DNA of 53,797 nucleotides from Lama guanicoe (lineage: Eukaryota), in contig MU053653.1 of the NCBI GenBank assembly GCA_013239625.1, positions 124,001 to 177,797 of the forward strand, read 5' to 3'. The notes beneath the pieces were generated by a model that was not told the DNA's origin, searched no databases, and saw only the letters and a list, made by a program, of their open reading frames with translations. The translations under genes and the position numbers were made by a program. Below are positions 365-51,527 of the stretch, in pieces. How positions within the stretch are numbered: position 1 is the first letter of the stretch; the number at the start of each line of letters is the position of its first letter.

Positions 365-493
365 ATGCCCAGTGAGGCGCTGAGCTCCCCACCCACTGGG
401 CGGCAGAAGGAGGATTAGTCGTGCTGCTGGGGGTGACACGCACGTGCGGGTGGCGGCCAGGCGGATGTCTCCAGGCGAGCAGCGCTCCGCTAC
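365..493 (-). pseudogene. Non-repeat exon [42 protein letters not shown] with +1 frameshift and stop
   Basis: ctgcag acceptor, gtgagt donor, phase-0 start matching the previous exon; extra C in the run at 429-433 and TAA at 415-417 in the Cys-containing frame. Confidence 0.75.
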
Positions 494-3400
494 CTGCAGG
501 AGGGTGTGGAAGGAGAGTCCTGGCTCGGGCACTGTGCAGGTTGGGGGTGCGCCAGAGAACACTCCAGAGAACATTCCAGAGACAGAGGAAGGGTCTCTGG
601 GGAACCAGTCTCCTCCGAGAGGTCATTTAGTCAACGTGCCAAGACTAGGGTTAGGCTGGAGGGTAGAGGGGACCCACACAAGTAACAGGAGACAAGTCAG
701 CTCCTTGGAGAGATACACGGGAGGGAGGTCTAGCTCTGGGGAGACTGACCTGGGTTCCCACGCCACAGCAAAGGTGACCTCCCAGGAAGTAAACATGGAT
801 GGGAGGAGGGAAGGTGGGGGCTGGTCATGGCGAGACCAGTTTAGAGTAAGACTGAGGGCAAGATGGCCCAGAGGGAGGGCAGCCCAGCGGTCGGAAGGAC
901 CAGAGTGTCAGAGGAGCAGCCCAGTCGGGGGGCAGGAGGGAGCAGCGTCAAAGGAGCTGGTGCGCTGGCTGGGCCCACACTGCCCTTCTGCCTCCGGAAG
1001 GTGTGAGTCCAGGGTGGAAGGGGTCTGGGGAGCTGCAGTCCCTTCCCTGGGGTCACGTCAGGGAAGACATGCTCCCTCCTGAAAAACCCAATTTTTTAGG
1101 CCAGTGTGTAGCCAGACTTTCGATCATGCTGCCCAAGAGTGAAAATGACTGTGAAAAGTATTATTACAACATATGCTAGACAGTGTAAAAAAATACACAA
1201 ATACAAGGGAAAATCTCATGAGAAGGAAATGAACATGAACAGTTTTGATATTTCCTTCTTGGACCCCAGTGGCTTGAGCACACCGATTTTGGGATGGGCT
1301 CCGTGAGGCCAGAGTGTTCCCTGTTCTCTGACCAGGGTAGTAGGGGTAACGGGTAAGGGAGTTTGCCCATTAAAATCAGGGGTGAGTTTTAGGTGCTACC
1401 CATGAAACCAGCCGCACCTCTGGGGAGCTGATCCGTATGTGATCCCATGATACGTCAGAGGTGAGCCCTGCCTCTAAGTAGCTGAGTTTTGTCGATAACC
1501 TGGTTTGCTCTCTGCACTTCACTCTCTTCATGTGTAAAGGGGGCAGCTTTGACATTCTGGGGACCAGAGGCAGGCCAGGCAGTGTGTCAGGCTCCACGCA
1601 GGGCACTGGGAGGCCACCTGAAGGCCTTGGGCTGGGCAGCAGCTCTGTGTGGGAAGGAGGCTGTCTCTGAGGGTGGGAGGGCTTGCGTCTGCAGGGAAGT
1701 TCGAGAAACAGAGATGATGGGGCAGGTTTGGTTTTCTTGGCTAGGAGGGCAGGCGGGAGGGGGCCCAGCTCCTCACAGACCTGAGTAAGGGTGCTGGGAG
1801 CCAGGGCCGGGTGGCCACGTGAAGGACAGACGCCCAGACCTGTCTAGGGAGCAGCTCCTTGTCCAAGCTGAGCGCCCTCAGCCGAGCTCAGACTTGCAAG
1901 GCCTGGGAGCCAGGCTGGTGAGCGGTTTTCAAATGTCAGTGACTGTCAGAAACATTTGGAGGCCTGAGGAGACCCAGCTGCTGGGTCCCCCTCCCGGAGT
2001 CTCTGCTTCACTCCGCCAGGGGCAGGGCTCAAGGATGAGCATTTCTGACAAGCTTCCAGGCTATGCTGATGCTGCTGGTGCAGAGACCACACCTGGAGAG
2101 CCACTAGTCCAGCAGAAGGAGGAGCAGAGCCTCTCGCACACAGGGGAGAGGGGCTCAGACAGCAAGGACTACCTGACTTAGGGCTCCAGGCATGTTGGAA
2201 GCCAATCAGGCTGGGGCCATGGCCAGGGGCTGTGACCGTCCCCCTGGGGGAGACGGTCACAGCCTGCCTCACCATGTTGGCTCTTCTCCTGTTTAGCAGC
2301 AGGGTCTGCAAGGGGGAAGGTAGACCCGCCTGGAATGGCACAGGTAGGGGAGAAGAAGGGTGGCGAGAGAGCAGGCGTTCAGGCTGAGCTCCTGTTGGAC
2401 CTGGGTGGGTGGACGGGGTCCTGACTGTCATCTTGTTTTTCTGTGGCTCAAATACAGGATTAAGATGACTGAAATTGGAGATTTGGAGTCAAGGGGGAGA
2501 CCTCTGCTGATTGAGCCCGGGACAGCACAGGGGCTTCTTTGCCACGTGGCTGGTTGGGCGAAGGGGCCCCCATACAGGTGTTGCTGCCTTTCAAAAAAAG
2601 GTCAGGTCCAGGGCCTCCAGAGCTGGCTATGAGAGGAGGGGTTCCCGGCTGCCCCCAGGGCTCTGTGCCAGGGAGAGGCACTGCTCTTGTTCTAGCGACC
2701 CGTCCCACCTGGGACGTGGCCCTTCCTGCTGTTTGTGACTCCTTGTTTCATGTGCTCCAGGGACAGACCCCTGCAGGGGCGACTCTAAGATCCTGTACAA
2801 GGCTGAGTTTCTGTGGTTCTCTGATAAGGAGAGACATGTGTCTGGACCTGAGCTCTCTGCAGTCTTCCCATTTGTGCAGGAGCTAATCCCCGGGCACAAA
2901 GGGCTGGACGGGAACCAAACAGCCAACGGAGGTGCCTGGCACACAGGGCGGCCACCGAGGCAGTGCTCCCTTCACCCCCCAAGCCTCCCCTCCCCGAGGC
3001 CCCAGTGCGCTCGCTACCTGGGGCTGACAGTCCTCACCACTGCTGCTCTTGTCCTCGGACTCGTGTCCTGCCTGGCAGATGCAGGAACTGTCTGACTTCT
3101 GGAAGACCCTGTTCAGGCCTCGACATGTGCAGTGGGAGGCACCTGGAGGGAGAGAAGTCCCCAAGCTCATCATAGGCTTCTGACAGGGAGCCAGAGACAT
3201 GAGGCAGCCCGGTAGGGCAATCAGACACCTGCCTTCACCAAAGTACTGACCTGAAGGGTCTCTGAGGGGAAAAATGAGCTCTTCCAAGTCTGACTTTGCA
3301 TTAGAATTATCCAAGAAGCTTTTTAAAAACATTTGTCCCCTTTAGACCAATTAAATAAAAATCTCTGAGGGGAGGCCAGGACATCTACCTTTTAAAAACT

Positions 3401-6400
3401 TCCTGGAGAGCTTTATTGTGCAGCCAGGGCTGAGATCTAGCTATGCAGTTGAAAGTCCCTGACACCTGTGGAAGGCGCTGTTCCTACCAGGGTCACACAG
3501 AGCCTCGGGGGTGCAGGGGGCCGTCCTGAAAGGCTGGCCCAGGCTTCTGTCTCTAGGCAACGAAGGGGTGAGATCTACAGACTGAAGGCCCCTCGAGACC
3601 TTGAAGGATGGCCTGGAATGCGTGGACGGAGCTGGGTAAGGAAGTTAGGGTTTTATTTGATTGACAGAAGGAGCCCAGGTGGATGTTCCTCTGGGAGAGG
3701 CAGTTGTGGGGAGGCCGAGACTGGGACCTTGCAGGGGACTGAGGTTCACTGTGGCTCTGGCCGGTTTGCCCCTGTTGGGATTGGTGTCTGCTCAGGGAGA
3801 TTAAAAACTAATCAAAGTTTAGCCCCTGCAGATACCACTTGGACATGGTGCACAGTAGCCAAAAGATCCTCAGCAGAATTTGTTGACTGAATTGATTAAG
3901 GCTGAGATTTTTTGCCAACATGGTTACAATCTCCCCCTGCATTCCCAAATTTAGGGACCATTAACAAGAAGAATTATTTTTACTGTAGAGAAGGATGGAA
4001 GTTACTCAACCCTGAAGTGACACAGGGGGTTTTCTCCCACAGTCAGATTGTCAGCTCTCTCCACTACCCTGAAGGCTAGAAAGTGCTTTGGCCCATCTGG
4101 ACCCGCCCCCGCTGGGTGAAACGTGGGCCCCATCATGATCCAGGGGTCTTCCATGTCTTCTCTTTGTCCAGAGCCGTGGGCTGCAAACCTGGGAACCTGG
4201 GTGCCGGGGAACTTCTTGCATGAAGGAGTGACTAGATGGGTGAAGGAGTGACCAGTTATGAGACCTCACCCTCAGTGTTTTATAATTCAATTATATTAAT
4301 TTCCTGAATAACAAATGCAGAGACCACACCTGGAGAGCCACTAGTCCAGCAGAAGGAGGAGCAGAGCCTCTCGCACACAGGGGAGAGGGGCTCAGACAGC
4401 AAGGACTACCTGACTTAGGGCTCCAGGCATGTTGGAAGCCAATCAGGCTGGGGCCATGGCCAGGGGCTGTGACCGTCCCCCTGGGGGAGACGGTCACAGC
4501 CTGCCTCACCATGTTGGCTCTTCTCCTGTTTAGCAGCAGGGTCTGCAAGGGGGAAGGTAGACCCGCCTGGAATGGCACAGGTAGGGGAGAAGAAGGGTGG
4601 CGAGAGAGCAGGCGTTCAGGCTGAGCTCCTGTTGGACCTGGGTGGGTGGACGGGGTCCTGACTGTCATCTTGTTTTTCTGTGGCTCAAATACAGGATTAA
4701 GATGACTGAAATTGGAGATTTGGAGTCAAGGGGGAGACCTCTGCTGATTGAGCCCGGGACAGCACAGGGGCTTCTTTGCCACATGGCTGGTTGGGCGAAG
4801 GGGCCCCCATACAGGTGTTGCTGCCTTTCAAAAAAAGGTCAGATCCAGGGCCTCCAGAGCTGGCTATGAGAGGAGGGGTTCCCGGCTGCCCCCAGGGCTC
4901 TGTGCCAGGGAGGGGCACTGCTCTTGCTCTAGCGACCCGTCCCACCTGGGACGTGGCCCTTCCTGCTGTTTGTGACTCCTTGTTTCATGTGCTCCAGGGA
5001 CAGACCCCTGCAGGGGCGACTCTAAGATCCTGTACAAGGCTGAGTTTCTGTGGTTCTCTGATAAGGAGAGACATGTGTCTGGACCTGAGCTCTCTGCAGT
5101 CTTCCCATTTGTGCAGGAGCTAATCCCCGGGCACAAAGGGCTGGACGGGAACCAAACAGCCAACGGAGGTGCCTGGCACACAGGGCGGCCACCGAGGCAG
5201 TGCTCCCTTCACCCCCCAAGCCTCCCCTCCCCGAGGCCCCAGTGCGCTCGCTACCTGGGGCTGACAGTCCTCACCACTGCTGCTCTTGTCCTCGGACTCG
5301 TGTCCTGCCTGGCAGATGCAGGAACTGTCTGACTTCTGGAAGACCCTGTTCAGGCCTCGACATGTGCAGTGGGAGGCACCTGGAGGGAGAGAAGTCCCCA
5401 AGCTCATCATAGGCTTCTGACAGGGAGCCAGAGACATGAGGCAGCCCGGTAGGGCAATCAGACACCTGCCTTCACCAAAGTACTGACCTGAAGGGTCTCT
5501 GAGGGGAAAAATGAGCTCTTCCAAGTCTGACTTTGCATTAGAATTATCCAAGAAGCTTTTTAAAAACATTTGTCCCCTTTAGACCAATTAAATAAAAATC
5601 TCTGAGGGGAGGCCAGGACATCTACCTTTTAAAAACTTCCTGGAGAGCTTTATTGTGCAGCCAGGGCTGAGATCTAGCTATGCAGTTGAAAGTCCCTGAC
5701 ACCTGTGGAAGGCGCTGTTCCTACCAGGGTCACACAGAGCCTCGGGGGTGCAGGGGGCCGTCCTGAAAGGCTGGCCCAGGCTTCTGTCTCTAGGCAACGA
5801 AGGGGTGAGATCTACAGACTGAAGGCCCCTCGAGACCTTGAAGGATGGCCTGGAATGCGTGGACGGAGCTGGGTAAGGAAGTTAGGGTTTTATTTGATTG
5901 ACAAAAGGAGCCCAGGTGGATGTTCCTCTGGGAGAGGCAGTTGTGGGGAGGCCGAGACTGGGACCTTGCAGGGGACTGAGGTTCACTGTGGCTCTGGCCG
6001 GTTTGCCCCTGTTGGGATTGGCGTCTGCTCAGGGAGATTAAAAACTAATCAAAGTTTAGCCCCTGCAGATACCACTTGGACATGGTGCACAGTAGCCAAA
6101 AGATCCTCAGCAGAATTTGTTGACTGAATTGATTAAGGCTGAGATTTTTTGCCAACATGGTTACAATCTCCCCCTGCATTCCCAAATTTAGGGACCATTA
6201 ACAAGAAGAATTATTTTTACTGTAGAGAAGGATGGAAGTTACTCAACCCTGAAGTGACACAGGGGGTTTTCTCCCACAGTCAGATTGTCAGCTCTCTCCA
6301 CTACCCTGAAGGCTAGAAAGTGCTTTGGCCCATCTGGACCCGCCCCCGCTGGGTGAGACGTGGGCCCCATCATGATCCAGGGGTCTTCCATGTCTTCTCT

Positions 6401-9400
6401 TTGTCCAGAGCCGTGGGCTGCAAACCTGGGAACCTGGGTGCCGGGGAACTTCTTGCATGAAGGAGTGACTAGATGGGTGAAGGAGTGACCAGTTATGAGA
6501 CCTCACCCTCAGTGTTTTATAATTCAATTATATTAATTTCCTGAATAACAATTTTTTAAAAAAGTTTTCTTTTGCTAAAGAATACTTTGAACAAACGTCT
6601 GAACGCTTGGTGTGGCATTCATGCCTATAGATTCGACCACAGACCTTGAAAGTATCATTTTATGTCTCTCCCCCACCATCCCAGCCCAGTGGGGTTCTAC
6701 TCACCCCCAGGTTCCTGTTTAAATACGTTTCCCAGAGCTTGCCCTGCCCCTGCCCTGCAGAAGCAGCTCTTTTCTGATTTGGAACCATCCAGACCTTTAG
6801 GCTCACTTCCTGTGGCGCTGACACTCCTGCTAGTTCTTCCTGTGTTTTCTTCCTTCTTCCTGTGAGAGCTGTCTTCGTATCTTTCACAGTGCCTCTGTGG
6901 CACTAACAGTTGGAAGCTAGTGTCTGTGGGCTGACCTTTAAATACATTAACTAAAAGACCCCCACCTAATCCTGAAAGGGAAAGAGGCAGTTTACAAATG
7001 TGCATGTGCCTGCCAGACTTTTTCCTACCTGTGGCAGAGAGTAGCTTATTTCAGACCCATCTTCCTATGACATACAACTAGAAAAGCCAGAAAAAATACA
7101 GAAAACTTCTGTCTGAAGGCATAAAGAACTTAACTACAGACTTAAGAAAAAGGGCGGGAACACACAGAGGACCGGCCCACATTTGGGACACACCCCCTGA
7201 AAGCCGCTGGGCTCTCAGTTGACAGGCTGAGATGCGCACAGCTTCACGATGGCCCTCGAGGCCCTGGGGACACCGAGAATGGGGGGCCTCCGGTCAACAC
7301 CACGACCTTCAGTTCGAGCCACTGAAGATCTGCAGTCAGGGATGCACTGACTCTCTCAAAACCTGGAGCCCAGGACTCCTTTTCTGAATCCCTGATGAAC
7401 GGAAGGCTTTTGTTGCTACTGTGACTGCCTTCCAAAACGAAAGTGACTCCTCCATTCTGGAAGGTAGCAGCATCCAGAATTTCAAAACTTCGCTACAATT
7501 TTCAGTCACAAAGCCTAGCATCCAACTGAAGTCTTTCCCCCACCATCCCAGCCCAGTGGGATTCTACTCACCCCCAGGTTCCTGTTTAAATACGTTTCCC
7601 CGAGCTTGCCCTGCCTCTGCCCTGCAGAAGCAGCTCTTTTCTGATTTGGAACCATCCAGACCTTTAGGCTCACTTCCTGTGGCGCTGACACTCCTGCTAG
7701 TTCTTCCTGTGTTTTCTTCCTTCTTCCTGTGAGAGCTGTCTTCGTATCTTTCACAGTGCCTCTGTGGCACTAACAGTTGGAAGCTAGTGTCTGTGGGCTG
7801 ACCTTTAAATACATTAACTAAAAGACCCCCACCTAATCCTGAAAGGGAAAGAGGCAGTTTACAAATGTGCATGTGCCTGCCAGACTTTTTCCTACCTGTG
7901 GCAGAGAGTAGCTTATTTCAGACCCATCTTCCTATGACATACAACTAGAAAAGCCAGAAAAAATACAGAAAACTTCTGTCTGAAGGCATAAAGAACTTAA
8001 CTACAGACTTAAGAAAAAGGGCGGGAACACACAGAGGACCGGCCCACATTTGGGACACACCCCCTGAAAGCCGCTGGGCTCTCAGATGACAGGCTGAGAT
8101 GCGCACAGCTTCACGATGGTCCTCGAGGCCCTGGGGACACCGAGAATGGGGGGTCTCCGGTAAACACCACGAACTTCAGTTCGAGCCACTGAAGATCTGC
8201 AGTCAGGGATGCACTGACTCTCTCAAAACCTGGAGCCCAGGACTCCTTTTCTGAATCCCTGATGAACGGAGGGCTTTTGTTGCTACTGTGACTGCCTTCC
8301 AAAACGAAAGTGACTCCTCCATTCTGGAAGGTAGCAGCATCCAATTGGAGGTGTGTGACATATACTTTAAACTGTGATTTGCATGTTTGATAAATCAAAC
8401 GACAAGATGGAGAATTTCACCGGGGGAATAGGGAACTATAAAGGAATAACAGAAAATCCAGAACTGAAATATTCAATAGCAAAAAATAAAATATCATTAG
8501 ATGCATTTAATAGCAGATTATATGGAGCTAAAGAAAATAAAGTGAAATATAGGTCTGAAAAAACATCCCAATTGAATCTCAGGAAGAGAACATAAAAGAT
8601 GAAAAATGCAGCAAACAACGCAAGAGACATGTGTGTGGTAAAAAGAGGTAACATGTGTAACTGGAGATCCAAAAGGAAAGGGAAAAAACAAGGCAGAGTA
8701 AATATTTAAAAACATAATGGCTGAGAATTTCACAAAGTTAAGATACATCAAACCACTCAGGAAGTACTAAAGGAACTCAAGTAGGATTAACTCAAATAAT
8801 ACAAACAAAGTTTGCAGGAAAAAAAACCTCAGTTTTATTCTTAAAAATCAAAGACAACGAGAAAATCTTAAAACTACTCAAGAAAAAGTACATTTAGCTG
8901 CAAAGAGCAAATATAGGTGCTTAAATAAGACTCCTCAACAGAAACAATGGAAACAGAGGCCCTGGAAGCGCGTCTTTGAAACGCTGAACGAAAATCACTG
9001 TCAAACCAGAATTCTAGCTCAAGTGTGCCTTACGACTAAAGCTGAGGAGACATCTTTAGACAAACAAAACATCAGCCGATGACAGTTTAAAAGCATTTAC
9101 AATGGCATCAAGATACACGAAACGCCCAGGAAAACTCTGATTCTACGTCGGTGTAGACACAGTGCTGTTTTCTTCACTGTGCTCTGATTAGGCTTCTCAA
9201 CTTCCACAAGACGTCCCACTCTAGTTACTACATTTTCCCTTTCTGTTTTCTAAAAGCGTTGTTGACTTCTTGTATAGGACACGAGTTAAGAGTCAGAATT
9301 CACCGTTCCTAAGTAGATCGCCATGGCATGGCCCTTTTATTGAGGAAACACTCATGTTTGTCATCAACCACACATCCTATATATAGCGGGTCTGCTTGAG

Positions 9401-42400: not shown

Positions 42401-45400
42401 TCCCTCTTCAGGTGGAAGCTGGAAATCGACGTTAAATACCTTTTCTCTACTTTTTCACATTTTTATTGGCCGTGTGTAATAGTTGTGGGCCTACCAGCTC
42501 TGTCTCTGCAGTAGTTCCATCCTGTCTTTGCTGGGGGCGCACTGTCATCCCATTAGGTGGTGAGCCCTGAAGGGCAGGCACTAGGTCTTGCCCTCTGTTG
42601 CGGCCCCCAGCCCCGGCCCAGGCCTCTGCGCTTAGGCTAGCCTTGCCTCTGGGAGGCCCAGTGGGGCCTGCACTCACCGGGGAAGAGGTGTTGGAACCAG
42701 GCCCACAGTGATACCCAGGATGGCATAGCCCCTGGGGCTCAGCCAGGCCGGCTTTGCCGCAGAAGGTCCCAGAGCGGCATGGCTGGCAGTCCTCCACGTG
42801 GGCGGCCCCAGGGGCCTCTCGGAAAGTGCCCTGGGCAGAGAGAAGAATACCACCAAGATCAAGGTCCTGGAGACCAGAATAGGGGCTCCAGGCCTGAACA
42901 GGTTGGCTACTCTGCCAAGAAGGGAGGAGAGCAGGGCCCCTTTACCCTCACCTGGGACAGGAGGAGCAGGGGAACGGGAGATCCCTGATCGAGAAATGAG
43001 CCTCCAATGAGGGGAGGCTAAGGAAAAAAAAAAAAAGAAAAAGAAGAAGAAGAAGAAAGAAATGAGCCTCCAAGACACTCGCAGGAATGGGTGGGATTTA
43101 CTTTTCGACAGATCGAAAGAGTTTGACCGCAAAGTGCCCATCCGATGAGGAGCGTCGTAGCTAGAAGTCATTCGATCTTGCTAGCAGGCAGGAAAAGAGA
43201 ACAGGCCGCCTAAGAGGTGCGTGTATCTTGGGGAGAGGAAGCCGTGGTGTAGGGGGTAGTGGGGACAGGGGGCTTATGGGGCTTGGAGAGCAAATGCTGC
43301 CCTTCCTGCCCAGGCCCCACCTGGCCTCCTTCCTTTCTCTGCGTCCCTCTCACCCCCACAAGCCTGTGTCACTTTGTCCCTTGTGACTTTCTGGTCTGGC
43401 AGCACTATCAGAAACCAGCTGCAGGAAAGTGAGCGGCCCAGCCCTCATCTGAGCTGGGGTGGGAGGAGGAGGGCTGGGTGCAAAGGCTGGACCGCTGCAC
43501 ACACCACGGTGAAGGGATGCTGTCTGTCCCACCCACCCGGACAGGGCTGATGGCTCTAGAACTTCCCCACCCAAAAGCAAAGAAAGGCTGGAAGCGTGGA
43601 GGGGAGCTTCTCACCCTGGGACAGGGGATGGACAGCAGGCCCCGGGCTGGGCAGTAGTGCCCGGGTGGACATGCAAGGGGGCTAGCCAGCTTTGTCTGGT
43701 TGCAGAGTTTTCCTCCTGGGCACTCCTGACACCAGAGACGACCTGGACCCTGGAAAGAGGGATTGGTAGTAAGGCTGGTTTCTTTCCACACCGCTAACAT
43801 TTGGGCCATGCCTGGTGCATAGCAGGCACTCAGGAAATGTGTTGAATTGCATTGGAGATGCTTCTGGCCTGGGCCCCAGGCTCTGTGTTTGCGCCTTCCT
43901 TTCTGAGGAGGGCAGGGCCTGAGAGTGCCTGAGCACAGGGCAGATGCCAGTAGAACTGAGGTGCTCTCTGGGCATCTGACTTGGTCCACACGTTGTCAGC
44001 GTCCGGAGGGAGGGCCGGGATGGAGCCTCTGCTCTGCTGGCCACCACCCCACCTCCCTTACCTTAGAACCCTCCCATTTCCAGGCCCGCTGAGGGAACAC
44101 TTACTGAGAAGCTGCCAGCACTGCATGGCCGTGGAGTGGCGGTGCCCAGCTCAGGGCAGTGGTGACCAGCTGGGCACAGCACACAGGCCACAGCCAGCCT
44201 CGCACCAGGACTCTGGCGGGAGGTTCCCCTGAAGGAGAAGTAGAGAGCTGAGGGGGTGGGGCCCACAGCCTTGCTGGGGGAGGAGCTGTGACAGCCACAT
44301 GCGGTCACCATTGTCCCCATGCACACCATAGGGTTCAAGAGCAATCAGGCCCCTAGGTAGGGCTGAGGATGTGCCCGGTGTGACCTAGTGGTAGTGAGGC
44401 ACAAGAGAGTTTGAAACCAGGCTGTGGGCTAATTGCGCTTCTTTTGAAGTGTCTGTTCCTTCGCTTTGCTTGTATTTTCCATTCGGTTTTCTCTCTGTCT
44501 TATTTTAACTGATTTGCAATGGCTCTTTGCATAATAAGGCAGTAAGTAGATGGATGTTAGCCCGTCATTCGTGCTGAAAATACCTCCCTGCTTTGTGGTT
44601 TGCCTTTTACCTTTGTTTAGGATGACTTTGAAGGACAGAAGCTATAACGTTGTCCAAATCTTACAGTCTTTTCCTCAATTATTCTGCTTTTCGTGTCACG
44701 CTTAGATTTTCCACACTCTGTCAGATTTTATTAATCTCTATTTATATTTTGTTCGTAATTTTATAATTTTTTTACATTGAAATCCATATTTGTTCTGAAA
44801 TTTATTTTGGTTAATGTTGTTTTCACTTTTTACAAGAACAAGTATTATTTTTTAAATTAAAAACTCTGAGTTTTACTTTTTGACTAGAGGAATAAAAGGC
44901 ACTTCTTGCTAAAAATGTCATATCAACAGAGAACCCCGGAGCTTGGGCCAAATCTCTGCTGAGAACTTGGCTGGCATTAGCTCCCAGCGCACTTGGCCTA
45001 TTGGCTGAGCTGCTCTGAATCAGCTTCTCCACTGGCGTGTGGGCACCTCGCCCACTGACTGCAGCCCAAAGCATTCTCCCTCTATCTATATCTGGGCCCA
45101 TGGGGTCCCGAGCCCTGGCCCCTGCCCATCCTATTCCTGTGTCTTGTCTCCAGAAGGCTGCAGGCCCTAAGGGCAGTCTGTCTTTGAAGATTCCTCAGTG
45201 CCCAGAGCAGCACTGGGCTCTAGCGGGTAACATATGGTCACTTAGCTTCAAGAACAGCCACACCCCTCAGCCTCCTTTACCGTGGGCAGAGCACAGGCTT
45301 GGGTGTTCCACGAGGGCAGAAGGCCCCTGGTGGGCAGGGCAGACAGTCTTCTGCCTGGCTGTTGCCTGCCTGAGAGCTGTAGGTGCCTGCTGGGCAGGGG

Positions 45401-48400
45401 AACTGGGTGCCCCACTTTGTACCTGCGTTAGAGAAAAAAGCAGGGGTCTGAGGAGGGAAGAGGTGGGTGGTCAGAGCTGCACTATCCAGGCACAGCAGCT
45501 CCTCACCTCCTCCCTGGGGACAGGTCCTCAAGGGAGGCCACTGGGGTTGGGCACGGAATGGGGGGTGCCACTCACTGAGGACCCAGCCTTTGTCTGGGCT
45601 GACAAGCCCTGTGACTCTCCAGTCAGGAAGCTCGCTGACTGACCACTCCCAGCCCTCCTCTCAGGAAGGTCTTCCTGAAATCTCACCTTAATCTGGGAGA
45701 CATGCAGGCTGGCCCATGCATATTTCACTCCAAATACTGACCTGTGACCTTGCCAGGGCAGTCTCTGGCCCTACTCACCTTGTGGGCAGTAATGTCCAGC
45801 TGTGCATGTCCCTGAGGGCACCTGGGCTCCACTGACACAGAACCAACCCCCGGGACAGGGCGTACACTCCTCGCCCGCAGTCAGTCCGGTCCGGTTACTC
45901 CAGGTGCCTGGGGGACACTGGAACTGGGTTGGCTGTTTGGTGCCCTGAGGGCAATAATGGCCAGCTGGGCAGGGGGTGGGGGGCCAGGCTGAACCCCCTG
46001 TTCCTGCAAACACAGTCCTGAGCTAGGCCTGAAGGAGCAGCAGCCCCTGCAGTCGCATCCCTCGGGCAGGTGGCAGGGACACTGGCTGGGGCTCAGCCCT
46101 GGGGAAGGGGTGTCTGGGTTGCAGGTGGCCCAGAGGCTGCTCCACCTGAGGCAGTGGGGCAAGACTGGGAAAGCTCTTCCTGGCCCCACCCTCAAGCACC
46201 CAATGTGGGGGAAGGAGGGGCTGTGGGCCAGGGTCTGTTTTCCTGGCCCCTGCCTTGGAGTGCAACTGGTTCTTCGCCCCTAGGCAGGGTATGGCAGGTG
46301 GCGAGGCTGCCTCTCGTGCCCCTCACTTACCTCTAGGACAGGCCAGTCCCGAGGGGCAGATCTCACACTGTGACAGGTCAGAGAGGTCCCTGCGGTTGCT
46401 GAAGGTCCCTGGGGGACAGGCATGAGTGGGAGCGTCGGGACTTGAGGAGCCCACAGGGCACATGTACCTATGACAACCGAGGAGTCAGAGCTTAGTACCC
46501 ACCATGCAGAACCCAACATCCTGGAGAATCACAATAAAATCCCCCTGGGCCCGCAGGCCTGCTGTGTGGCTTTGGCATGGTAACTTGGCCTCTCTGAGCT
46601 GCCTTTTTCCTATGGAAAAGCCAGGAGTTGCCCAGCTGCTTCCTGAGCACGCTCAGGCCCCAGTGCTCCTACAGGAGGTCCAGGAATCCTGGGCTGGTGT
46701 GACCCTGAGCTCTGCTCTGGGGCCAGGGGCTCAGCCCTCCCAAGACACTGAGACAGGTGAATACTTGGAGAAGCCTCACCTGAACCCGAGGGCCTGACTC
46801 TCTAATGGTGGTAGGAGGATTCAGAGCCCCCATCCAGTCACCCTGTCATTGAGAACTCAAAGCCCCTTACCCCGGTGTGCACTCTGTGTCTGGCTGAGTC
46901 AGCCCAGCCTGGGTGCAGGCCTTGCCTGCTGGGCACGGAGTGCAGTCTGTGGCTTCATCCTGGCCTGGGTGGGGACTGAATGTGCCTGGCTGGCATGGGA
47001 TGGGGTGGGTGGTTCCGTTGGGACAGAAGTGTCCTGCCGGGCACTGCAGACACTGGCTGAGAACTGGAGAGAGAACAGCCCACATCACTGTAGTAACAGG
47101 TAACGTATTGTGTGAAGAGAAAATCCTGAAATCTACATACCAAAAAAAAAAAAAGGCACTATAGCAAGCAAATGAAGCAGGTAAGATTAAAGGATACAAA
47201 GTCAACATAAAAAAGTCAATACTAGCCAGGGCCTCTAAGAGATATTTGTACACCCATGTTCATAGCGGCATTACTCACAGTAGCTAAAATGTGGAAGCAA
47301 CCCAAATGTCCATCAGCAGGAAAATGGATAAGCAAAATGTGGTATATATGTACAATGGAATATTGTTCAGCCTTAAAAAAGGGAAAAATTCAGATATACG
47401 TGACACTGTGGATGAACCTTGAGGATGTTATACTAAGTGAAATAAGCTAGTCATAAAAAGACAAATACCGTGTGATTCCACTTAAATGAGATACTTAGAG
47501 TTGTCAAAGTCATAGAAACAGGAAGCAGAATGCTGCTTGCCAGGAGCCTGGGGGGAAAAGGGGAATGGGGGATTATTGCCTAATGGGTACAGAGGTCTAG
47601 GTTTACAAGATGAAAAGAGCTGTGAGGATGGAAGGTGGTGATAGTTGGACATCATGAATGTATTTCATACCACTGAACTGTACACTTACAAATGGTTAAG
47701 ATGGTAACTTTTATGTATATTTTTTACCACAATAATAAACAAATCGAAAAATCCCAATAATAGCTACAAACACCAGGAAATTGAAATAAAAAATACAGTT
47801 CCATTGACAACAACCTCCAGAAACAGTAAACAATAAATCGGGAATAAATCTGACAATGTACGTGCAGGCCCTGTATACTGAGAACTGTGACCCTCTGCCA
47901 ATACTGCGTGTCCAGGAAGGAGGAGAACCAGTACTTGCACGTCTATGGGGCCCACGCGCCGCAATGTGCCGCGTGCTTCCTTCCTCCTGCACTGACTCAT
48001 TGCATTCTCCCCACAGCCCTGTGGGTGTGTTTGGGGCGGGGGTAGCTGGACTCTGCTCCTCAGAGACCACCTGGGCTCCCTGGGGGTGTGCAGGCCAAGC
48101 CGAGCACTGCGGACCCAGCACCGTCCTAGCCCATCCTGGTACAGTCAGGGTCCCCTGCCTGCTCTCACGTACATGTGGGGCAGGGCTGGCAGCCGAGGCC
48201 TCTGTCTGAGAATAAGGGGCCCAGAGGGCAGAAGAAATAGCTACCATGCTGCGGGCGTGGCTGCTGTCTAGGCTGGACAACAAAGAAACACAGGTGAGGG
48301 TGCAGGTAGATCGTGACTAACACCTGTACCTGGAGGCTGCCGATATTTGGGATTCCAGCTCAGGTGCTTACTTTTGTCAAGTGTCTTTGCAGATTCCCTA

Positions 48401-51400
48401 ACCTAAAAGAAGAGCACCGCAACGCTGCTTGCACATGTCACAGTGAGGAGGAATTAACCCTGTGAGCCACAGAGCTTCATGGTGAAGGGGTGGTTCTTAG
48501 TTTCTCCTTCTCCTCTAACTCTTGGTGGAGGCTGCAGCCCCAGGACTTACGTGCTGAGATGTAGGATGGCCTGCCTGATCCTTGTCCTCTGACCCCGTGC
48601 CACACATTGTAGGTTCCTGGTGACACGTGCTGAGTGAATGACTAAGTCATGAGGCGGCTGCTGTGGTGTTTGTGTCACAGCTCTGTAGCTTCTGCCTTAA
48701 CTGCACGCTAAGTGGGAGCAATGGCTCTGAACCTCCCAGCACTCACATGCATCATCTCCTTGATCCCTGCAGTGGCCCCAGAGGCCGGTACACTTGCTTC
48801 CAGGTTACACTGGATGGGTGAGTCCCCAGACTCCGGGTCAGAAGTGGGCAGCGACTGTTGGCTTCCTCACCACGGAGAGGTGCTAACTTCTTCCTGCCGG
48901 CTCCCTTCCCTCCCTGCCAGCCCCTGCCAAGAATGGTTGAGACAAGGAGCTGCCCTCTCCTGGGGATCACCCAGCAGTCCTTCCTTCCTGTGAGTCTGGG
49001 GAACCCATTGCCGGTTCCGGTGGGACATGGCTGAGAGCCGTCCTGCCTGCCAGGCAGCTGCAAATGCCAACAGAAGTTGAGCGACTGAGGAGAGACCCCG
49101 TAGCCCAGGGAGGTGCCAGCCAGGGGACAGTTGGGCCTTAATGGCAGCAGAGATGGCACTGAGGTCCTTTACCCCTGGCCTGGGTACGTTCAGGTTTCCC
49201 ACAAGCCTTGGCCACAGGCTGGCCCACTTTCGGCCTACCCCAACTGGGACAGGATGGATGGAGAAGGGAGAGTGTCCCCAGTTGGACGACTCAGAGCTGA
49301 TAGTCAAGGCTGGGGTCCTGGGGACAGGGTCAGTTCCTCATAGGTCTCTGGGAGGACAGCCTCAGGATGTCTGTGCAGGGTTCCCAGACCAGTCTGACCA
49401 CCCAGGGCTTGTCCTGGGGGCTCGGGGAGAAGGGGTTGAAGTTGTGGAGCCATGGGCTGAGGTGTGACCCCTTCCTCTGGTCTGAGGAGGGACCACAAGC
49501 AGCAGGAGTCACCGACAGTGAACTGGAGAGAGCAGATGGTCTGACAGCCAGCCCCACTTCCCAGGTGAGGACTTACCAGGTCACAGGACTGGGAAGCAGA
49601 GCCCAACCAGGTACCCACCCTGCACCTTGAATTCGATCGAGGTCAGAAGTCTGTGCCCTGGGCAGCCTCTGGGCGATCGACCACCGGGCATCTGTGCACA
49701 CTAGGCTGCGCCCCAGGCAGTGCTCAACCCTTGGGAGCTCATTACACTTAGGGCTGTCATGGGAAGAACCTGTATGGGTTCCCTTTGCAGGTCCCCCTCC
49801 TCCAGAGAGGGGGCAGCCACCTCGCCACCCCTCGTCCTCAGCTTGCCCTTCCTGCCCTTTCCCTCCCCCTCCCTGGGGCACAAGTGTGTCTGCTCCTTAC
49901 TAAAAGCCAGCGGGGCACTGCAGGCAGCCCCCAGCCACAGAGTGCCATTCTGACAGGCAGGCGACGGGGCCCAGGAGGCAGCAGTGGGCCCTGCTGTGGG
50001 GAGAGAGGGCGGCTGTCCCTGTGAAAAGCCGAGGAGAGGAGGGCGGCGCTGGTGTGAGACTGATGCTCCCCATGGAGCCCCTGAGTGGGGCCTTCTCTCA
50101 TGATGGTGTTTCTTCAGCAAAAGCCTGCTGTCATAATGCACCAGTCCGCACTGAGGACATGGGATGCAGTGGCTGGTATTGCGGACCACGGCTCTCCTGG
50201 GCACAGCCAGCGTGAGAGACAAGAAGAGAAAGGCACGAAGATCATGCATCGGGGGCCCCAGGTCGGCTGAGGGGCCTCCCGAGATCCTGGAAACCTGATG
50301 CGCTGAGGAAGCCTCAGGGCTTTGTTGTCCCCCTTACCTGCTCAAATTTCCAGGCTCTCAGAGCACCTGCAGTCAGCAGTGCAGAACAGCTGAGCTGACA
50401 TTTCATCTGGTCAGCCTGCTTGTTTTACACAAGGGGAAGCTGGCATGACTGGCCAGAGCCACGCTGGGACCCTGGTGCAGGGGCTGCGGTCTGTGTCCCT
50501 GCAGGTCCCAGGGCAGGGTGTGCTGCTCCTCCCTGGGCCCTCTGCCCCCACCCTCCCCGACAAGATCTCTGCTGGACTGAAGACCCAAGGAAGGGCTGCC
50601 TGGGCTTCACCTCAGAGCAGCTCAGCAAATCTTTACTTGGGACCCCAAGAGGCCCCAGGCTGTGGTGGCACAGACAGGTCTGGTTCAGATCCCAGCTTCT
50701 CCACCTACTATCATTTAGCAACTTCTCTCTAGCTCAGGTTTACTGGGACACAATACCTACCTCAGAGAATTGTGTGGACAATAAATGAAAATGATGTGTT
50801 TATATATATATATATATATATATAGTTTATATATTAAATACATATGTATTAAATAAATATATATAAATTTATATCTTATAGAAGCTATATATAATTATAT
50901 CTAAGATGCATATTTTAAGTAATCAGATATAAGATTTTATATATGTATCTATCAAACTTTCGTTTAGTAAAGACAATACAAGTACTTATTTCACATGAGG
51001 CCCAGAGAGGCAGACAGTTTATAGAGAAAAACTAATCCCCTTACAGGGCTGCCTGTAACTCCAGAGCCCGGGAGAAGGTGCAGAGAAGGATGAGAGGGCC
51101 AGAGAGAGTCAGCCCCGAGAATTCGGGTCCGCGGAGGCTGTCACTTGGGTTGGAGAGCGGGTGGAGGCCTGCAGATGAGTGCAGGTTACAGGAACCCAGA
51201 GGAGGGGCCCGCAGTGTGTGCCCCCTCCCCTGCTTTCAGGCACTGACCCAGCAGTGATGAAGGCCATGGGTTGGGCTCATAACCTAGACCTGACACTCAC
51301 TCATGCCATGCTCTTGACCAAGTCTTCTGAAAAGTGAGTTTGAGTCATATCCACGCACAGAGGTGATGAGCGTTCTCAGAGAGAATGCAGGCAGAGGCCT

Positions 51401-51527
51401 TACATCCCAGTACACAGCATGCACCCAGTTGTCGTGGCCGTTATTTCACTGCTCTTGTTGACTCACCTGCACTGAGGGCAGCGAGCAGAGGGGCCAGGGC
51501 CATCCAGAGCACATGCTGCGGTGGCAT
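365..51527 (-). CDS. Giant multi-exon gene encoding a secreted or cell-surface cysteine-repeat (GCC2/GCC3, Ephrin_rec_like) protein; partly decayed, possibly a recent pseudogene; 3' end probably outside the window
   Basis: About 48 minus-strand segments bounded by AG/GT translate to CPxG[HYF][YF]C / CPxGT[FY] repeats with matching intron phases, and there is an N-terminal hydrophobic leader exon. Resembles mouse Gm9195 / zebrafish si:ch211-286b4.4 from memory only. Confidence 0.9.
1920..2108. mobile_element. MER5A-like hAT-Charlie DNA transposon relic
   Basis: Recognisable motifs 'gcatttctgacaagcttccagg...gctgatgctgctggt...gaccacac...gagagccact'. Confidence 0.7.
3018..3142 (-). CDS. Exon [42 protein letters not shown] (copy A)
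   Basis: cctccag acceptor, gtagcg donor, 125 nt, phase 1>0. Confidence 0.8.
3285..3441. mobile_element. MER5B-like relic (duplicated at about 5522-5678)
   Basis: 'ttagaattatcc...ttttaaaaacttcctgg...gtgcagccagggctgaga' motifs. Confidence 0.5.
5255..5379 (-). CDS. Identical duplicate of the 125-nt exon (copy B)
   Basis: Same sequence and splice sites as 3018-3142. Confidence 0.8.
6664..8343. repeat. Tandem duplication, 867-bp period (6664-7530 / 7531-8343)
   Basis: Direct comparison shows about 10 substitutions; the second copy lacks a segment of about 50 bp at its end. Confidence 0.95.
8380..9070 (+). mobile_element. Old L1 (L1M) ORF1-region fragment
   Basis: A-rich; translation resembles L1 ORF1 (KMENF...[22 protein letters not shown]; 'aaacaatggaa...tgtcaaaccagaattcta'). 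Confidence 0.75.
9220..9710 (-). mobile_element. Old L1 ORF2 fragment, antisense
   Basis: 'ctcccaacttcattcttctttttaagattgtcttagctatt...tttccacataat' is typical of antisense L1 ORF2. Confidence 0.7.
10384..10596 (-). CDS. Exon [16 protein letters not shown]...[13 protein letters not shown] (last repeat exon)
   Basis: AG/GT, 213 nt, phase 1>1. Confidence 0.9.
11226..11425 (-). CDS. Exon [11 protein letters not shown]...[10 protein letters not shown]
   Basis: AG/GT, 200 nt, phase 2>1. Confidence 0.9.
11941..12067 (-). CDS. Exon [14 protein letters not shown]...TGPGQL
   Basis: AG/GT, 127 nt, phase 1>2. Confidence 0.9.
12305..12529 (-). CDS. Exon [16 protein letters not shown]...[10 protein letters not shown]
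   Basis: AG/GT, 225 nt, phase 1>1. Confidence 0.9.
12639..12809 (-). CDS. Exon [14 protein letters not shown]...YHCLSPG
   Basis: AG/GT, 171 nt, phase 1>1. Confidence 0.9.
12901..13026 (-). CDS. Exon [11 protein letters not shown]...[10 protein letters not shown]
   Basis: AG/GT, 126 nt, phase 1>1. Confidence 0.9.
13431..13567 (-). CDS. Exon [14 protein letters not shown]...CAKQCSPG
   Basis: AG/GT, 137 nt, phase 2>1. Confidence 0.88.
14980..15088 (-). CDS. Exon [13 protein letters not shown]...CPPGHYCR
   Basis: AG/GT, 109 nt, phase 1>2. Confidence 0.9.
16200..16375. repeat. Degenerate (TG)n/(TGCA)n simple repeat
   Basis: Alternating purine-pyrimidine tract. Confidence 0.85.
16829..16997 (-). 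CDS. Exon [11 protein letters not shown]...[10 protein letters not shown]
   Basis: AG/GT, 169 nt, phase 0>1. Confidence 0.9.
17315..17466 (-). CDS. Exon [17 protein letters not shown]...LLCPQ
   Basis: AG/GT, 152 nt, phase 1>0. Confidence 0.88.
17878..18042 (-). CDS. Exon [12 protein letters not shown]...[11 protein letters not shown]
   Basis: AAG acceptor, gtgagt donor, 165 nt, phase 1>1. Confidence 0.88.
18589..18735 (-). CDS. Exon [11 protein letters not shown]...[12 protein letters not shown]
   Basis: AG/GT, 147 nt, phase 1>1. Confidence 0.9.
19699..19919 (-). CDS. Exon [21 protein letters not shown]...TCPKG
   Basis: AG/GT, 221 nt, phase 2>1; an alternative donor 3 nt further is possible. 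Confidence 0.88.
20661..20875 (-). CDS. Exon [19 protein letters not shown]...GTCDAG
   Basis: AG/GT, 215 nt, phase 0>2. Confidence 0.9.
21964..22067 (-). CDS. Exon [16 protein letters not shown]...PIKHK
   Basis: AG/GT, 104 nt, phase 1>0. Confidence 0.88.
22564..22719 (-). CDS. Exon [21 protein letters not shown]...CELCPAG
   Basis: AG/GT, 156 nt, phase 1>1. Confidence 0.88.
23583..23807 (-). CDS. Exon [17 protein letters not shown]...FYCEASSTG
   Basis: AG/GT, 225 nt, phase 1>1. Confidence 0.9.
23912..24050 (+). mobile_element. MIR SINE relic
   Basis: 'ggctttggagccaaac...ctctctgaactcagg..tttcatctataaaa...ttgtgaggataaatgag' MIR core. Confidence 0.65.
24859..25058 (-). CDS. Exon [10 protein letters not shown]...[11 protein letters not shown]
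   Basis: AG/GT, 200 nt, phase 2>1. Confidence 0.9.
25439..25559 (-). CDS. Exon [13 protein letters not shown]...CKTCPAGK
   Basis: AG/GT, 121 nt, phase 1>2. Confidence 0.9.
26714..26869 (-). CDS. Exon [15 protein letters not shown]...SGHSPG
   Basis: AG/GT, 156 nt, phase 1>1. Confidence 0.9.
27330..27503 (-). CDS. Exon GSYCLLSG...[10 protein letters not shown]...PCPAG
   Basis: AG/GT, 174 nt, phase 1>1. Confidence 0.9.
27695..27861 (-). CDS. Exon FFCPANTSS...CTPCEPG
   Basis: AG/GT, 167 nt, phase 2>1. Confidence 0.9.
28264..28363 (-). CDS. Exon [11 protein letters not shown]...CEPCPEG
   Basis: AG/GT, 100 nt, phase 1>2. Confidence 0.9.
28553..28706 (-). CDS. Exon [12 protein letters not shown]...SGPCPAG
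   Basis: AG/GT, 154 nt, phase 0>1. Confidence 0.9.
28829..28935 (-). CDS. Exon [12 protein letters not shown]...KLSSE
   Basis: AG/GT, 107 nt, phase 1>0. Confidence 0.9.
29600..29710 (+). mobile_element. MIR SINE relic
   Basis: 'ctactgactgtgtgacctcaggcaa...ctgagccttagtttcctttt' core. Confidence 0.6.
29796..30353 (+). mobile_element. ERV1-type solo LTR (558 bp)
   Basis: TGTTGCCA...TGGTAACA inverted termini; 4-bp TSD AAAG (29792-29795, 30354-30357); internal CCAAGATGGC and GC boxes. Confidence 0.8.
30947..31165 (-). pseudogene. Repeat exon [12 protein letters not shown]...PEAGTE with dead donor (AT instead of GT)
   Basis: 219 nt open, phase 1>1; the expected donor position reads G|ataatg. 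Confidence 0.8.
31452..31666 (-). CDS. Exon ISCSGG...CSPGHFC...LCPRG (partly degenerate)
   Basis: ttttttccag acceptor, gttagt donor, 215 nt, phase 2>1; one Cys apparently replaced (TTKFHIC). Confidence 0.7.
32109..32249 (-). pseudogene. Frameshifted repeat exon [35 protein letters not shown]...HPG
   Basis: ttctacag acceptor; the Cys motif switches frame at about 32184-32190, and the next exon requires the shifted phase. Confidence 0.75.
32845..32889 (-). pseudogene. Exon remnant [12 protein letters not shown]
   Basis: Clear repeat motif, weak donor, no good acceptor, upstream frame broken. Confidence 0.6.
33425..33560. mobile_element. MER5-like relic
   Basis: 'aggatcacctggagaactt..taaa...gctgggccc...gggtctgggg' motifs. 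Confidence 0.45.
33687..33902 (-). CDS. Exon [22 protein letters not shown]...GLTAPTG
   Basis: AG/GT, 216 nt, phase 1>1. Confidence 0.9.
34069..34218 (-). CDS. Exon [15 protein letters not shown]...GQCPAG
   Basis: AG/GT, 150 nt, phase 1>1. Confidence 0.88.
34551..34793. other. Assembly gap (243 N), intronic
   Basis: N run. Confidence 1.
34820..34936 (-). CDS. Exon [15 protein letters not shown]...CPPGTFC
   Basis: AG/GT, 117 nt, phase 1>1. Confidence 0.9.
35613..35792 (-). CDS. Exon [35 protein letters not shown]...CATSG
   Basis: AG/GT, 180 nt, phase 1>1. Confidence 0.92.
35990..36139 (-). CDS. Exon [18 protein letters not shown]...GPCDAG
   Basis: AG/GT, 150 nt, phase 1>1. Confidence 0.92.
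36668..36871 (-). CDS. Exon [15 protein letters not shown]...GFYCPRG
   Basis: AG/GT, 204 nt, phase 1>1. Confidence 0.92.
38105..38244 (-). CDS. Exon [18 protein letters not shown]...PNPTG
   Basis: AG/GT, 140 nt, phase 2>1. Confidence 0.9.
38997..39123 (-). CDS. Exon GAEVTHPDG...[10 protein letters not shown]...GTFSDR
   Basis: AG/GT, 127 nt, phase 1>2. Confidence 0.88.
39780..40182 (-). pseudogene. Probable fossil repeat exons
   Basis: Fragments [13 protein letters not shown] and TCHPAFF in shifting frames; residual gtgagg donor at about 39963. Confidence 0.4.
41020..41160 (-). CDS. Exon [10 protein letters not shown]...[13 protein letters not shown]...[13 protein letters not shown] (two Cys apparently lost)
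   Basis: AG/GT, 141 nt, phase 1>1. Confidence 0.7.
41435..41636 (-). CDS. Exon [15 protein letters not shown]...GPCAPG
   Basis: AG/GT, 202 nt, phase 0>1. Confidence 0.9.
42678..42830 (-). CDS. Exon GTFREAPG...[10 protein letters not shown]
   Basis: AG/GT, 153 nt, phase 0>0. Confidence 0.9.
42992..43073 (+). mobile_element. Extremely 5'-truncated retro-insertion (50 bp, mostly A-rich tail) with 16-bp TSD
   Basis: AGAAATGAGCCTCCAA at 42992-43007 and 43058-43073 flanks tgaggggaggctaagg plus an A/(AAG)n tail. Confidence 0.85.
43615..43749 (-). CDS. Exon [13 protein letters not shown]...SIPCPR
   Basis: AG/GT, 135 nt, phase 0>0. Confidence 0.9.
44105..44228 (-). CDS. Exon GTSRQSPG...CPAGHHC...CSAGSFS
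   Basis: AG/GT, 124 nt, phase 2>0. Confidence 0.9.
44430..44820 (-). mobile_element. Old L1 (L1ME-like) fragment, antisense
   Basis: T-rich; 'tgaagtgtctgttc...tttgtggtttgccttttac' L1 pattern. Confidence 0.6.
45281..45422 (-). CDS. Exon [15 protein letters not shown]...VLCPR
   Basis: AG/GT, 142 nt, phase 1>2. Confidence 0.9.
45779..46003 (-). CDS. Exon [18 protein letters not shown]...GHYCPQG
   Basis: AG/GT, 225 nt, phase 1>1. Confidence 0.92.
46331..46467 (-). CDS. Exon [10 protein letters not shown]...[10 protein letters not shown]
   Basis: AG/GT, 137 nt, phase 2>1. Confidence 0.9.
46871..47063 (-). CDS. Exon [19 protein letters not shown]...ECTPG (first intact repeat exon)
   Basis: tctctctccag acceptor, gtaagg donor, 193 nt, phase 1>2. 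Confidence 0.88.
47098..47900 (+). mobile_element. L1MB-like 3' end (about 47229-47740) inserted in an older L1 ORF2 fragment
   Basis: 'acacccatgttcatagc...tggaagcaacccaaatgtcc...atggttaagatggtaa' 3' end; flanks 'ggatacaaagtcaacata' and 'ggaataaatctgacaa' resemble ORF2. Confidence 0.85.
48173..48267 (-). pseudogene. Decayed exon candidate SYFFCPLG...GCQPCPT
   Basis: Cys motif with AG/GT; phase incompatible with the upstream candidates. Confidence 0.45.
48551..48616 (-). pseudogene. Decayed exon candidate GTYNVWHG...SGRPS
   Basis: AG and gtaagt donor; GTYN motif with Cys positions replaced. Confidence 0.35.
49901..49993 (-). pseudogene. Decayed exon candidate (ACQNGT and [10 protein letters not shown] in different frames)
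   Basis: Strong acceptor ctctctccccacag and gtaagg donor; motifs split across frames. Confidence 0.5.
50670..50795 (+). mobile_element. MIR relic
   Basis: 'ggttcagatcccagct...aatacctacctcagagaattgtgtgg...aaatga'. Confidence 0.55.
50800..50960. repeat. (TA)n microsatellite and AT-rich low-complexity tract
   Basis: Direct observation. Confidence 0.9.
51467..51527 (-). CDS. First coding exon: signal peptide [20 protein letters not shown]
   Basis: ATG, hydrophobic core with small residues at the likely cleavage site, perfect CAG|gtgagt donor, phase 1. Confidence 0.75.

Follow-up and report, generated by a model that had tools for sequence, protein, structure and literature searches.

The window analysed here is a 53,797-nucleotide stretch of the Lama guanicoe assembly (contig MU053653.1, positions 124,001 to 177,797; C1340:124001-177797 in our numbering), and its minus strand carries exons 1-49 of a roughly 63-exon gene for a giant cysteine-repeat protein, the rest of which lies beyond the low end of the window. 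Taking identity and architecture jointly, the gene is almost certainly the camelid orthologue of mouse Gm9195 and zebrafish si:ch211-286b4.4, with a type I membrane architecture. As an explanation of the locus as a whole, such an orthologue, encoding a stiff surface rod with a tail anchor, is probably the best available.

The strand, which the initial annotation had not given, was evident from the distribution of the cysteine motif. CP.G.[FYWH]C was found 45 times in the three minus-strand frames of the window and 0 times on the plus strand, whereas 50 shuffles that preserved dinucleotides averaged 0.14 occurrences and never gave more than 1; the shorter CP.G was counted 151 times on the minus and 34 times on the plus strand (shuffle mean ~20). 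The cysteine motif was contained in 42 stop-free minus-strand segments. No long bacterial-style open reading frames were present in the window. GC content was ~0.55-0.63 throughout, except for an AT-richer stretch at 6-10 kb, and an Rfam scan of the whole window returned 0 matches.

Exon borders were determined using 16 orthologue protein models as templates. Adjacent collinear tblastn matches were paired, and for each match pair the GT/GC-AG junction best reproducing the orthologue was counted as a vote; borders left after voting were set by phase-compatible sites and orthologue sequence. The 16 templates were collinear along the window and many junctions were picked by 5-13 of them. A dynamic-programming gene model of 64 exons, in which exons over-ran into stop-free intron, was discarded and replaced by the junction voting. 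The resulting minus-strand model opens with an ATG whose A is position 51527 and ends at 365, the final base of the last in-window exon, directly before a GTGAGT donor. It comprises 49 exons with AG/GT at every border and phases that chain throughout, a median exon length of 152 nt and a phase-1 start in 32 of the 48 exons after exon 1. The conceptual product of 2,576 amino acids (aa) contains 268 cysteines (10.4%), 124 CP.G motifs and 14 N-x-S/T sequons, with NGT, NRT, NQT, NYT and NLT among the latter. Since its N-terminus is common to the Rousettus, Lontra and Tupaia models, the assignment of a predicted signal peptide to exon 1 is well supported. The initial annotation had claimed about 50 exons, about 2,500 visible residues, a signal peptide, tandem CPxG modules and N-x-S/T sites; both of its end coordinates (51527 and 365) were exact, and the strand-specific motif and the above counts agree with the remainder. 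Splicing of the exons that it listed succeeded in part: the 49 exons chain in phase, but the assembled reading frame is broken in places, as described below.

The repeat itself had been called GCC2/GCC3 (Ephrin_rec_like), which was borne out by Pfam: PF07699 matched four of nine exon-bearing segments, one of them above the gathering score (25.4 versus 23.1 bits) and the other three slightly under it, and six of seven orthologue proteins at 26.8-72.6 bits. One window exon was 96% identical to a Camelus ferus model and also retrieved Cricetulus 'putative gene 9195', and exons 48-49, together with the next exons on C1340, were 87-100% identical to the alpaca model P0096. With the non-repeat C-terminal region of the bat orthologue as query, 108 proteins of 1,054-3,355 aa were found in mammals, birds, reptiles, amphibians, teleosts and cartilaginous fishes. 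Among these, 'Predicted gene 9195' (Peromyscus) and 'si:ch211-286b4.4' (several fishes, sawfish) carry the two names given for the gene in the initial annotation, which are thereby confirmed. Most of the other names borne by family models (MEGF6, zonadhesin, Notch, SCUBE, SVEP1, SCO-spondin) are automatic mislabels. A 285-aa repeat stretch aligned position for position with 23 orthologues from shark to mammals at 49-83% identity, which argues for an old fixed structure rather than a fast-turnover repeat.

Contig C1340 ends at the high end of the window. Below the low end of the window, the remaining ~600 residues of the orthologues were located in ~13 exons at C1340:123.7-108.5 kb, collinear with the gene, and the final exon was found only on contig C53645. 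With these downstream exons the Cys-rich piece is completed, and a beta-rich domain, one transmembrane (TM) helix, which in alpaca reads DWAVISGVLLAAGLATVLLTGLGLVLR, and a tail are added; in Lama guanicoe they would join the same transcript, judging from the sequence. Exactly one strongly hydrophobic segment follows the ectodomain in five of six long orthologues, the sixth having only the signal peptide at threshold. The 'secreted or surface' protein of the initial annotation can thus be specified as a single-pass membrane protein whose TM exon lies just outside the window. At E ≤ 1, Pfam gave only chance-level matches to domains of unknown function (DUF) outside the repeats of four C-terminal-rich orthologues. 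The complete product would be a type I membrane glycoprotein of ~3,200 aa that opens with the signal peptide and continues with ~2,500 aa of GCC2/GCC3 modules, two-strand hairpins in which disulfides brace every unit. Between this array and the single TM helix would lie first a short Cys-rich piece of a different kind and then a beta-sandwich that resembles cupredoxins but lacks their copper ligands; on the cytoplasmic side, the tail would start with the deeply conserved LEDF-VRTLYDKLEDQ-LH.

Structure predictions were obtained for the repeat array and for the juxtamembrane region. The repeat stretch was modelled with a mean predicted local distance difference test score (pLDDT) of 81.9 as a chain of hairpins with two-residue strands. 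Foldseek matched it best to the mastigoneme protein of Chlamydomonas, with seven rows at E 5e-10 to 5e-8 (8wa2, 9b4h, 8tx1), followed by ELAPOR1 (E ~1e-3) and, more weakly, by thyroglobulin and the cysteine-rich domains of the TNFR family, Eph and CaSR (E > 0.01). The juxtamembrane model reached a mean pLDDT of 56.6, with residues ~210-300 at 70-83 and the TM helix at 94. Its top 24 Foldseek rows were all of the cupredoxin fold (E 3e-3 to 1.5e-2, the 3e-3 match with probability 0.99), and in VIA-align plastocyanin ranked first (Z 8.4, root-mean-square deviation 2.9 Å, 93 of 98 residues), cupredoxin-fold proteins filling the top ranks and ephrin-A1 reaching Z ~5.3; these scores are borderline, as the Foldseek E-values exceed 1e-3 and a Z of ~8 is near the typical best for unmatched models. 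A cupredoxin-like fold of the membrane-proximal domain is accordingly a borderline prediction. In the alignment the domain contains a conserved motif PGTYVF-DN, with an invariant Y-V-F-x-D at the would-be Cys-loop position, and what we take to be the type-1 copper ligand positions of plastocyanin (His, Cys, His, Met) lack these residues.

A search with the module among 1.84 billion representatives gave 679 matches at E ≤ 1e-3, 366 at ≤ 1e-10 and 81 at ≤ 1e-30. Twenty distant matches were looked up; those with names came from a frog, a crinoid, the oomycetes Plasmopara, Albugo and Achlya, the labyrinthulomycete Hondaea, the jakobid Andalucia and the euglenid Entosiphon, and the others were environmental sequences. 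In all 11 distant proteins checked for layout, a single hydrophobic segment at the end of the module is followed by 750-4,080 residues, and 10 of them carry 13-165 CP.G motifs, the exception being a sequence that starts at the module itself. For 10 of the tails an amino-acid composition was obtained, and its richness in E, K, R, Q, L and A suggests that they are coiled-coil-like. The first ~120 tail residues of the bat protein were 41% identical to those of the crinoid (E 5e-19), and the LEDF-VRTLYDKLEDQ-LH core was 47% identical to the euglenid sequence over 53 residues (E 3e-12). This motif is situated just inside the membrane (P0074 ~1507-1640; crinoid P0243; euglenid P0255). Pfam found no family in the tails of the distant relatives and none that covers the motif, whose conservation argues for a conserved intracellular partner. 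An ESM Atlas search with the module gave a best match of 0.78 to an unnamed chordate cluster, below the meaningful level.

Hence the description of the gene as ancient holds, and to a greater depth than had been stated, since crinoid, oomycetes, jakobid and euglenid proteins have this layout too, tail motif included. Its description as patchily retained holds less well. Models exist in many mammalian orders, the C-terminal query having matched bats, carnivores, artiodactyls, horses, rhinoceros, rodents, rabbit, moles, tree shrew, lemurs, New World monkeys and a marsupial. There is a hint of loss in apes and macaque: the orangutan, gibbon and macaque models (P0398-P0402) cover 30-35% of the 411-aa query, and the three inspected (P0398, P0399, P0401) consist of TM helix and cytoplasmic tail, or of the tail alone. 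No human entry was among the 120 matches listed. These observations hint that catarrhines may have lost the giant ectodomain but retain an annotated 3' part.

Literature and expression data were searched for leads to a function. The gene had been described as one of unknown function in mammals, in line with which Gm9195 and si:ch211-286b4.4 appear, in the available parts of the sources, only in gene lists. Gm9195 is contained in a natural killer T (NKT) signature list and a hair-cell chromatin table, and si:ch211-286b4.4 is among the zebrafish genes for which wild-type testis exceeded ovary (10.1101/650218). No functional study of the family was found in the literature searched, and the papers listed with GCC2/GCC3 in title or abstract were apicomplexan work. 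Words sampled from the window were present in two 'reproductive system' RNA-seq runs at shares of 0.22 and 0.17, and in a third, possible RNA run at 0.17; these are unaligned shares and serve as a lead only.

For the mechanism we tentatively propose a rod and an anchor. The ectodomain would form a stiff, protease-resistant disulfide-ladder rod projecting far from the membrane, with a length on the order of 100-150 nm if up to 134 disulfides are placed at the ~11 Å spacing of the mastigoneme protein MST1. The juxtamembrane module and the tail motif would couple this rod to a cytoplasmic partner, and the protein would serve at the surface as a hair, a spacer or a sensor of contact rather than as an enzyme, most likely on male germ cells or ciliated cells. 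Several points weigh against this proposal. The function is deduced from shape alone, no experiment on the family having been found in the literature searched, and expression support in this genome amounts to the above RNA word shares of 0.17-0.22. The likeness to MST1 is structural and limited to the repeat arrays: the N-terminal immunoglobulin (Ig) tandem and C-terminal polyproline-II helix of MST1 are absent from the window family, the architecture of which is repeats, module, TM helix and tail, and no Ig-type Pfam family was found in the orthologues. The cupredoxin call was made on a low-confidence model with borderline scores. Finally, the gene copy assembled in the window is damaged by one frameshift, one stop codon, the loss of a donor and the truncation of an exon.

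These lesions were examined individually. Upon literal splicing, the reading frame survives as far as exon 19 and is lost in exon 20. Exon 19 is a remnant (32845-32889, the acceptor at 32889 being a guess) in which 69 nt, including the normal acceptor, are absent between two CTCCTATG direct repeats. Exon 20 (32109-32249, 141 nt) is one base short near 32185, reading GGGG in the window and GGAGG on the alternative contig C8791, and the frame is shifted. The orthologue-implied end of exon 22 (30923-31165) at 30947 is followed by AT in place of a donor, and a weak in-frame GT donor is present at 30923; a U12-type AT-AC intron was considered here and rejected by eye, the intron starting with ATAATGG and ending with AG. 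Exon 49 (365-493), the last in the window, has an extra C in a C run and a TAA at the orthologues' Cys codon, and five templates needed a 1-nt 'intron' at this site. Contig C8791 is 99.83% identical to the window over 2,330 columns (3 mismatches and 1 indel); on it exon 19 is intact and exon 20 is in frame at 142 nt, whereas exon 22 shows the same AT. The only other copy of exon 49 in the assembly, on C51295, is 100% identical to the window. Relative to the orthologues, 264 of 268 conserved Cys columns are kept, the four exceptions being a substitution shared with one of five orthologues aligned, a Cys-to-Phe change in exon 21 (31452-31666, set by junction votes), an alignment artefact and the TAA.

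Duplications were found around the same exons. The segment 2079-6551 is a head-to-tail duplication (2079-4314 versus 4316-6551, 99.69% over 2,236 bp) that contains exon 48 twice, at 5255-5379 and 3018-3142, and is probably a falsely duplicated haplotype; were it real, inclusion of both 125-nt copies in the transcript would shift the frame. A second head-to-tail duplication is located at 6664-8343 (6664-7476 versus 7531-8343, 98.77%), in the AT-rich part of the long intron, and a third, which also carries an exon, lies outside the window (C1340:108482-108622 versus 110549-110689). Parts of the gene are repeated on the small contigs C8791, C2279, C54843, C54786, C51295, C53229, C20749, C53645, C40169 and C40486. 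Such duplicates and redundant small contigs are typical of haplotype mis-assembly.

Given the frameshift, the stop codon, the lost donor and the truncated exon, the window copy may not make the described protein in this animal, and the gene could be a recent unitary pseudogene in this genome, or be decaying across camelids, with exons still recognisable and no full-length protein. For this reading speak the extra C and in-frame TAA of exon 49 with their identical sole second copy, the AT donor of exon 22 on both C1340 and C8791, the Cys-to-Phe change and the break of the literal frame at exon 20, as well as the partial camelid models: that of alpaca has 1,563 aa, with many exons skipped and a wrong-frame start, and that of dromedary (P0376) is a 547-aa fragment that begins after exon 49 and comprises the tail only. 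We nevertheless regard decay as unlikely. C8791 carries neither the deletion in exon 19 nor the frameshift in exon 20, 264 of the 268 conserved cysteines are kept, one of the four 'losses' being artefactual, and exon 22 is phase-symmetric, so that its skipping, like use of the 30923 donor, should preserve the frame; the false-duplication patterns and redundant small contigs furthermore make consensus errors likely. We therefore lean towards an intact or very recently damaged gene viewed through an error-prone assembly. That two or more separate genes, such as a secreted repeat protein and an unrelated membrane protein, were merged by the gene predictors is highly improbable. Many database models are indeed fragments or fusions, for example with the ATPase neighbour; however, phases chain across all 49 exons, bat, cat, fox, mouse-like rodent, frog and fish models hold repeats, module, TM helix and tail in one chain, and the same order was found in 10 of the 11 distant eukaryotic proteins checked.

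With the single gene retained, the passive rod has to be weighed against a role like that of the apicomplexan and ciliate cysteine-repeat modular proteins (CRMPs), as a receptor activated by a ligand or a trigger of exocytosis. When the Cys-repeat ectodomain touches its target, in sperm for instance, regulated secretion would be signalled. CRMPs have the same repeat type, and rhoptry or mucocyst discharge depends on them according to the available part of PMC9670195; an intracellular partner is indicated by the conserved cytoplasmic motif, and the testis bias of the zebrafish gene (10.1101/650218, likewise available in part) points in the same direction. Yet CRMPs are described there as multi-TM proteins, some with Kringle or MAR domains, whereas the window family has one TM helix and none of those domains, and Pfam found no signalling domain in the tail. 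We consider such a trigger quite unlikely. The rod and anchor could also be extended to a surface-hair family as old as the last eukaryotic common ancestor, with a rod of at least ~100 nm, a cupredoxin-like foot, a single TM helix and the near-invariant LEDF-VRTLYDKLEDQ connecting to a coiled-coil or cytoskeletal partner. The protein would then be a membrane-anchored mastigoneme analogue on sperm or motile cilia that senses contact or flow and was perhaps cut to its tail in apes. This idea, suggested by the flagellated-cell hosts (jakobid, euglenid, oomycete, labyrinthulomycete, echinoderm, vertebrate) and the testis-biased hints, is speculative and in our estimate improbable.

The coordinates of the remaining exons, all on the minus strand, are as follows. 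Exon 1 (51467-51527) contains the ATG and putative signal peptide and ends in phase 1 at a GTGAGT donor, its N-terminus being conserved in P0133, P0163 and P0070. No CpG island was found at the start codon (window 50400-53700, CpG observed/expected 0.05-0.45), as is common in tissue-restricted genes. Exon 2 (46871-47063) encodes the first Cys modules and matches P0090 and P0084, its phase-1 acceptor after a pyrimidine tract being the presumed choice, and exon 3 (46331-46467) was set by anchors and phases and matches the N-terminal sequence of P0133 and P0163. The donor of exon 4 (45779-46003) obtained 3 template votes and the junction from exon 8 (42678-42830) to the next acceptor 6, while exons 5 (45281-45422), 6 (44105-44228), 7 (43615-43749) and 9 (41435-41636) were fixed by junction votes and the phase chain. 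Both P0003 and P0163 support exon 10 (41020-41160), a Cys-poor module. Votes of 3 and 4 templates were obtained for exon 12 (38105-38244), 5 for exon 16 (34820-34936), 7 for exon 18 (33687-33902), 6-7 for exon 29 (25439-25559), 10 for the donor junction of exon 32 (22564-22719), 9-10 for exon 33 (21964-22067), 13 for exon 34 (20661-20875), 8-13 for exon 35 (19699-19919) and 7 for exon 46 (11226-11425).

Junction votes also defined exons 11 (38997-39123), 13 (36668-36871, with a weak PF07699 match), 14 (35990-36139), 15 (35613-35792), 17 (34069-34218), 23 (28829-28935; acceptor 28935, or 28929 with the cryptic exon 22 donor), 24 (28553-28706), 26 (27695-27861), 27 (27330-27503), 28 (26714-26869), 30 (24859-25058), 31 (23583-23807, the donor at 23583 chosen from orthologue sequence), 36 (18589-18735), 37 (17878-18042), 38 (17315-17466), 39 (16829-16997), 40 (14980-15088), 41 (13431-13567), 42 (12901-13026), 43 (12639-12809), 44 (12305-12529) and 47 (10384-10596), the last repeat exon, which gave the 25.4-bit PF07699 match above cut-off. 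Exons 25 (28264-28363) and 45 (11941-12067) were set by phase-compatible sites and orthologue sequence. With exon 48 (5255-5379) the non-repeat Cys-rich region begins; this exon is seven codons shorter than in carnivores and bats, and the same in-frame deletion is present in the alpaca model. An assembly gap of 243 N (34551-34793) lies within the intron between exons 16 and 17, and loss of an exon in it was dismissed because orthologues join these two exons directly. Compared over window exons 21-47, the alpaca model P0096 skips sets of exons whose lengths sum to multiples of three (exon 27; 29+30; 32; 40-42; 45+46), and several felid isoforms (P0126-P0128) range from 2,520 to 2,627 aa, so that cassette-exon skipping may give ectodomains of differing length.

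As for the neighbourhood, P-type ATPase exons (source name ATP12A; 78-95% identity to a dolphin model) were located at C1340:40681-58887, downstream of the repeat gene on the same contig and strand. This synteny, a check suggested with the initial annotation, agrees with the dolphin and argali models, which wrongly fuse the ATPase with the repeat gene, the argali model including a five-Tudor protein as well.

Few protein-coding genes so large and so conserved from shark to mammal remain wholly unstudied. The family now gains a concrete, if in part predicted, anatomy, namely a disulfide rod like that of mastigonemes, a cupredoxin foot devoid of copper, one TM helix and a tail motif that animals share with a euglenid. 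This layout extends across eukaryotes and sets the family apart from the multi-TM CRMPs of parasites. In place of an 'unknown giant gene' there are now definite questions: where the protein is located, how long its rod is, which partners its tail has and whether fertility or cilia depend on it. Caution is advised for this window, as several apparent gene-breaking lesions vanish on an alternative contig of the same assembly.

Among known systems, the closest are the other members of the family. Mouse Gm9195, zebrafish si:ch211-286b4.4 and the automatically named LOC, 'MEGF6-like', 'zonadhesin-like' and 'Notch-like' models have collinear repeats, the non-repeat module, TM helix, tail and ATPase neighbour in common with the window gene, from which they differ in that the Lama copy bears assembly-level lesions. 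ELAPOR1 (KIAA1324), SCUBE and SVEP1 contain the same Pfam repeat type, but as few modules amid other domains, while the window protein has ~50 exons of modules without such domains. The cupredoxins plastocyanin, amicyanin and pseudoazurin and the ephrin ectodomain resemble the juxtamembrane domain in predicted fold, with no redox role implied. MST1 shares with the window protein the long ladder of disulfide-braced hairpins: its tandem cysteine-rich domains resemble the cysteine-rich domain (CRD) of Eph receptors and form a disulfide ladder with ~11 Å spacing in a robust ciliary hair, but in the available part of that report it has nine Ig-like domains, a glycosylated polyproline helix and no TM segment, polymerises and is anchored by PKD2 (PMC10602792). 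Apicomplexan and ciliate CRMPs are, like the window family, giant membrane proteins with long Cys-repeat arrays and an extracellular N-terminus, and are described in the available part of PMC9670195 with multiple C-terminal TM domains and in some cases Kringle or MAR domains; as the window family has a single TM helix (five of six orthologues scanned and all 11 distant relatives) followed by a tail of coiled-coil-like composition, it is a family distinct from the CRMPs in spite of the common repeat.

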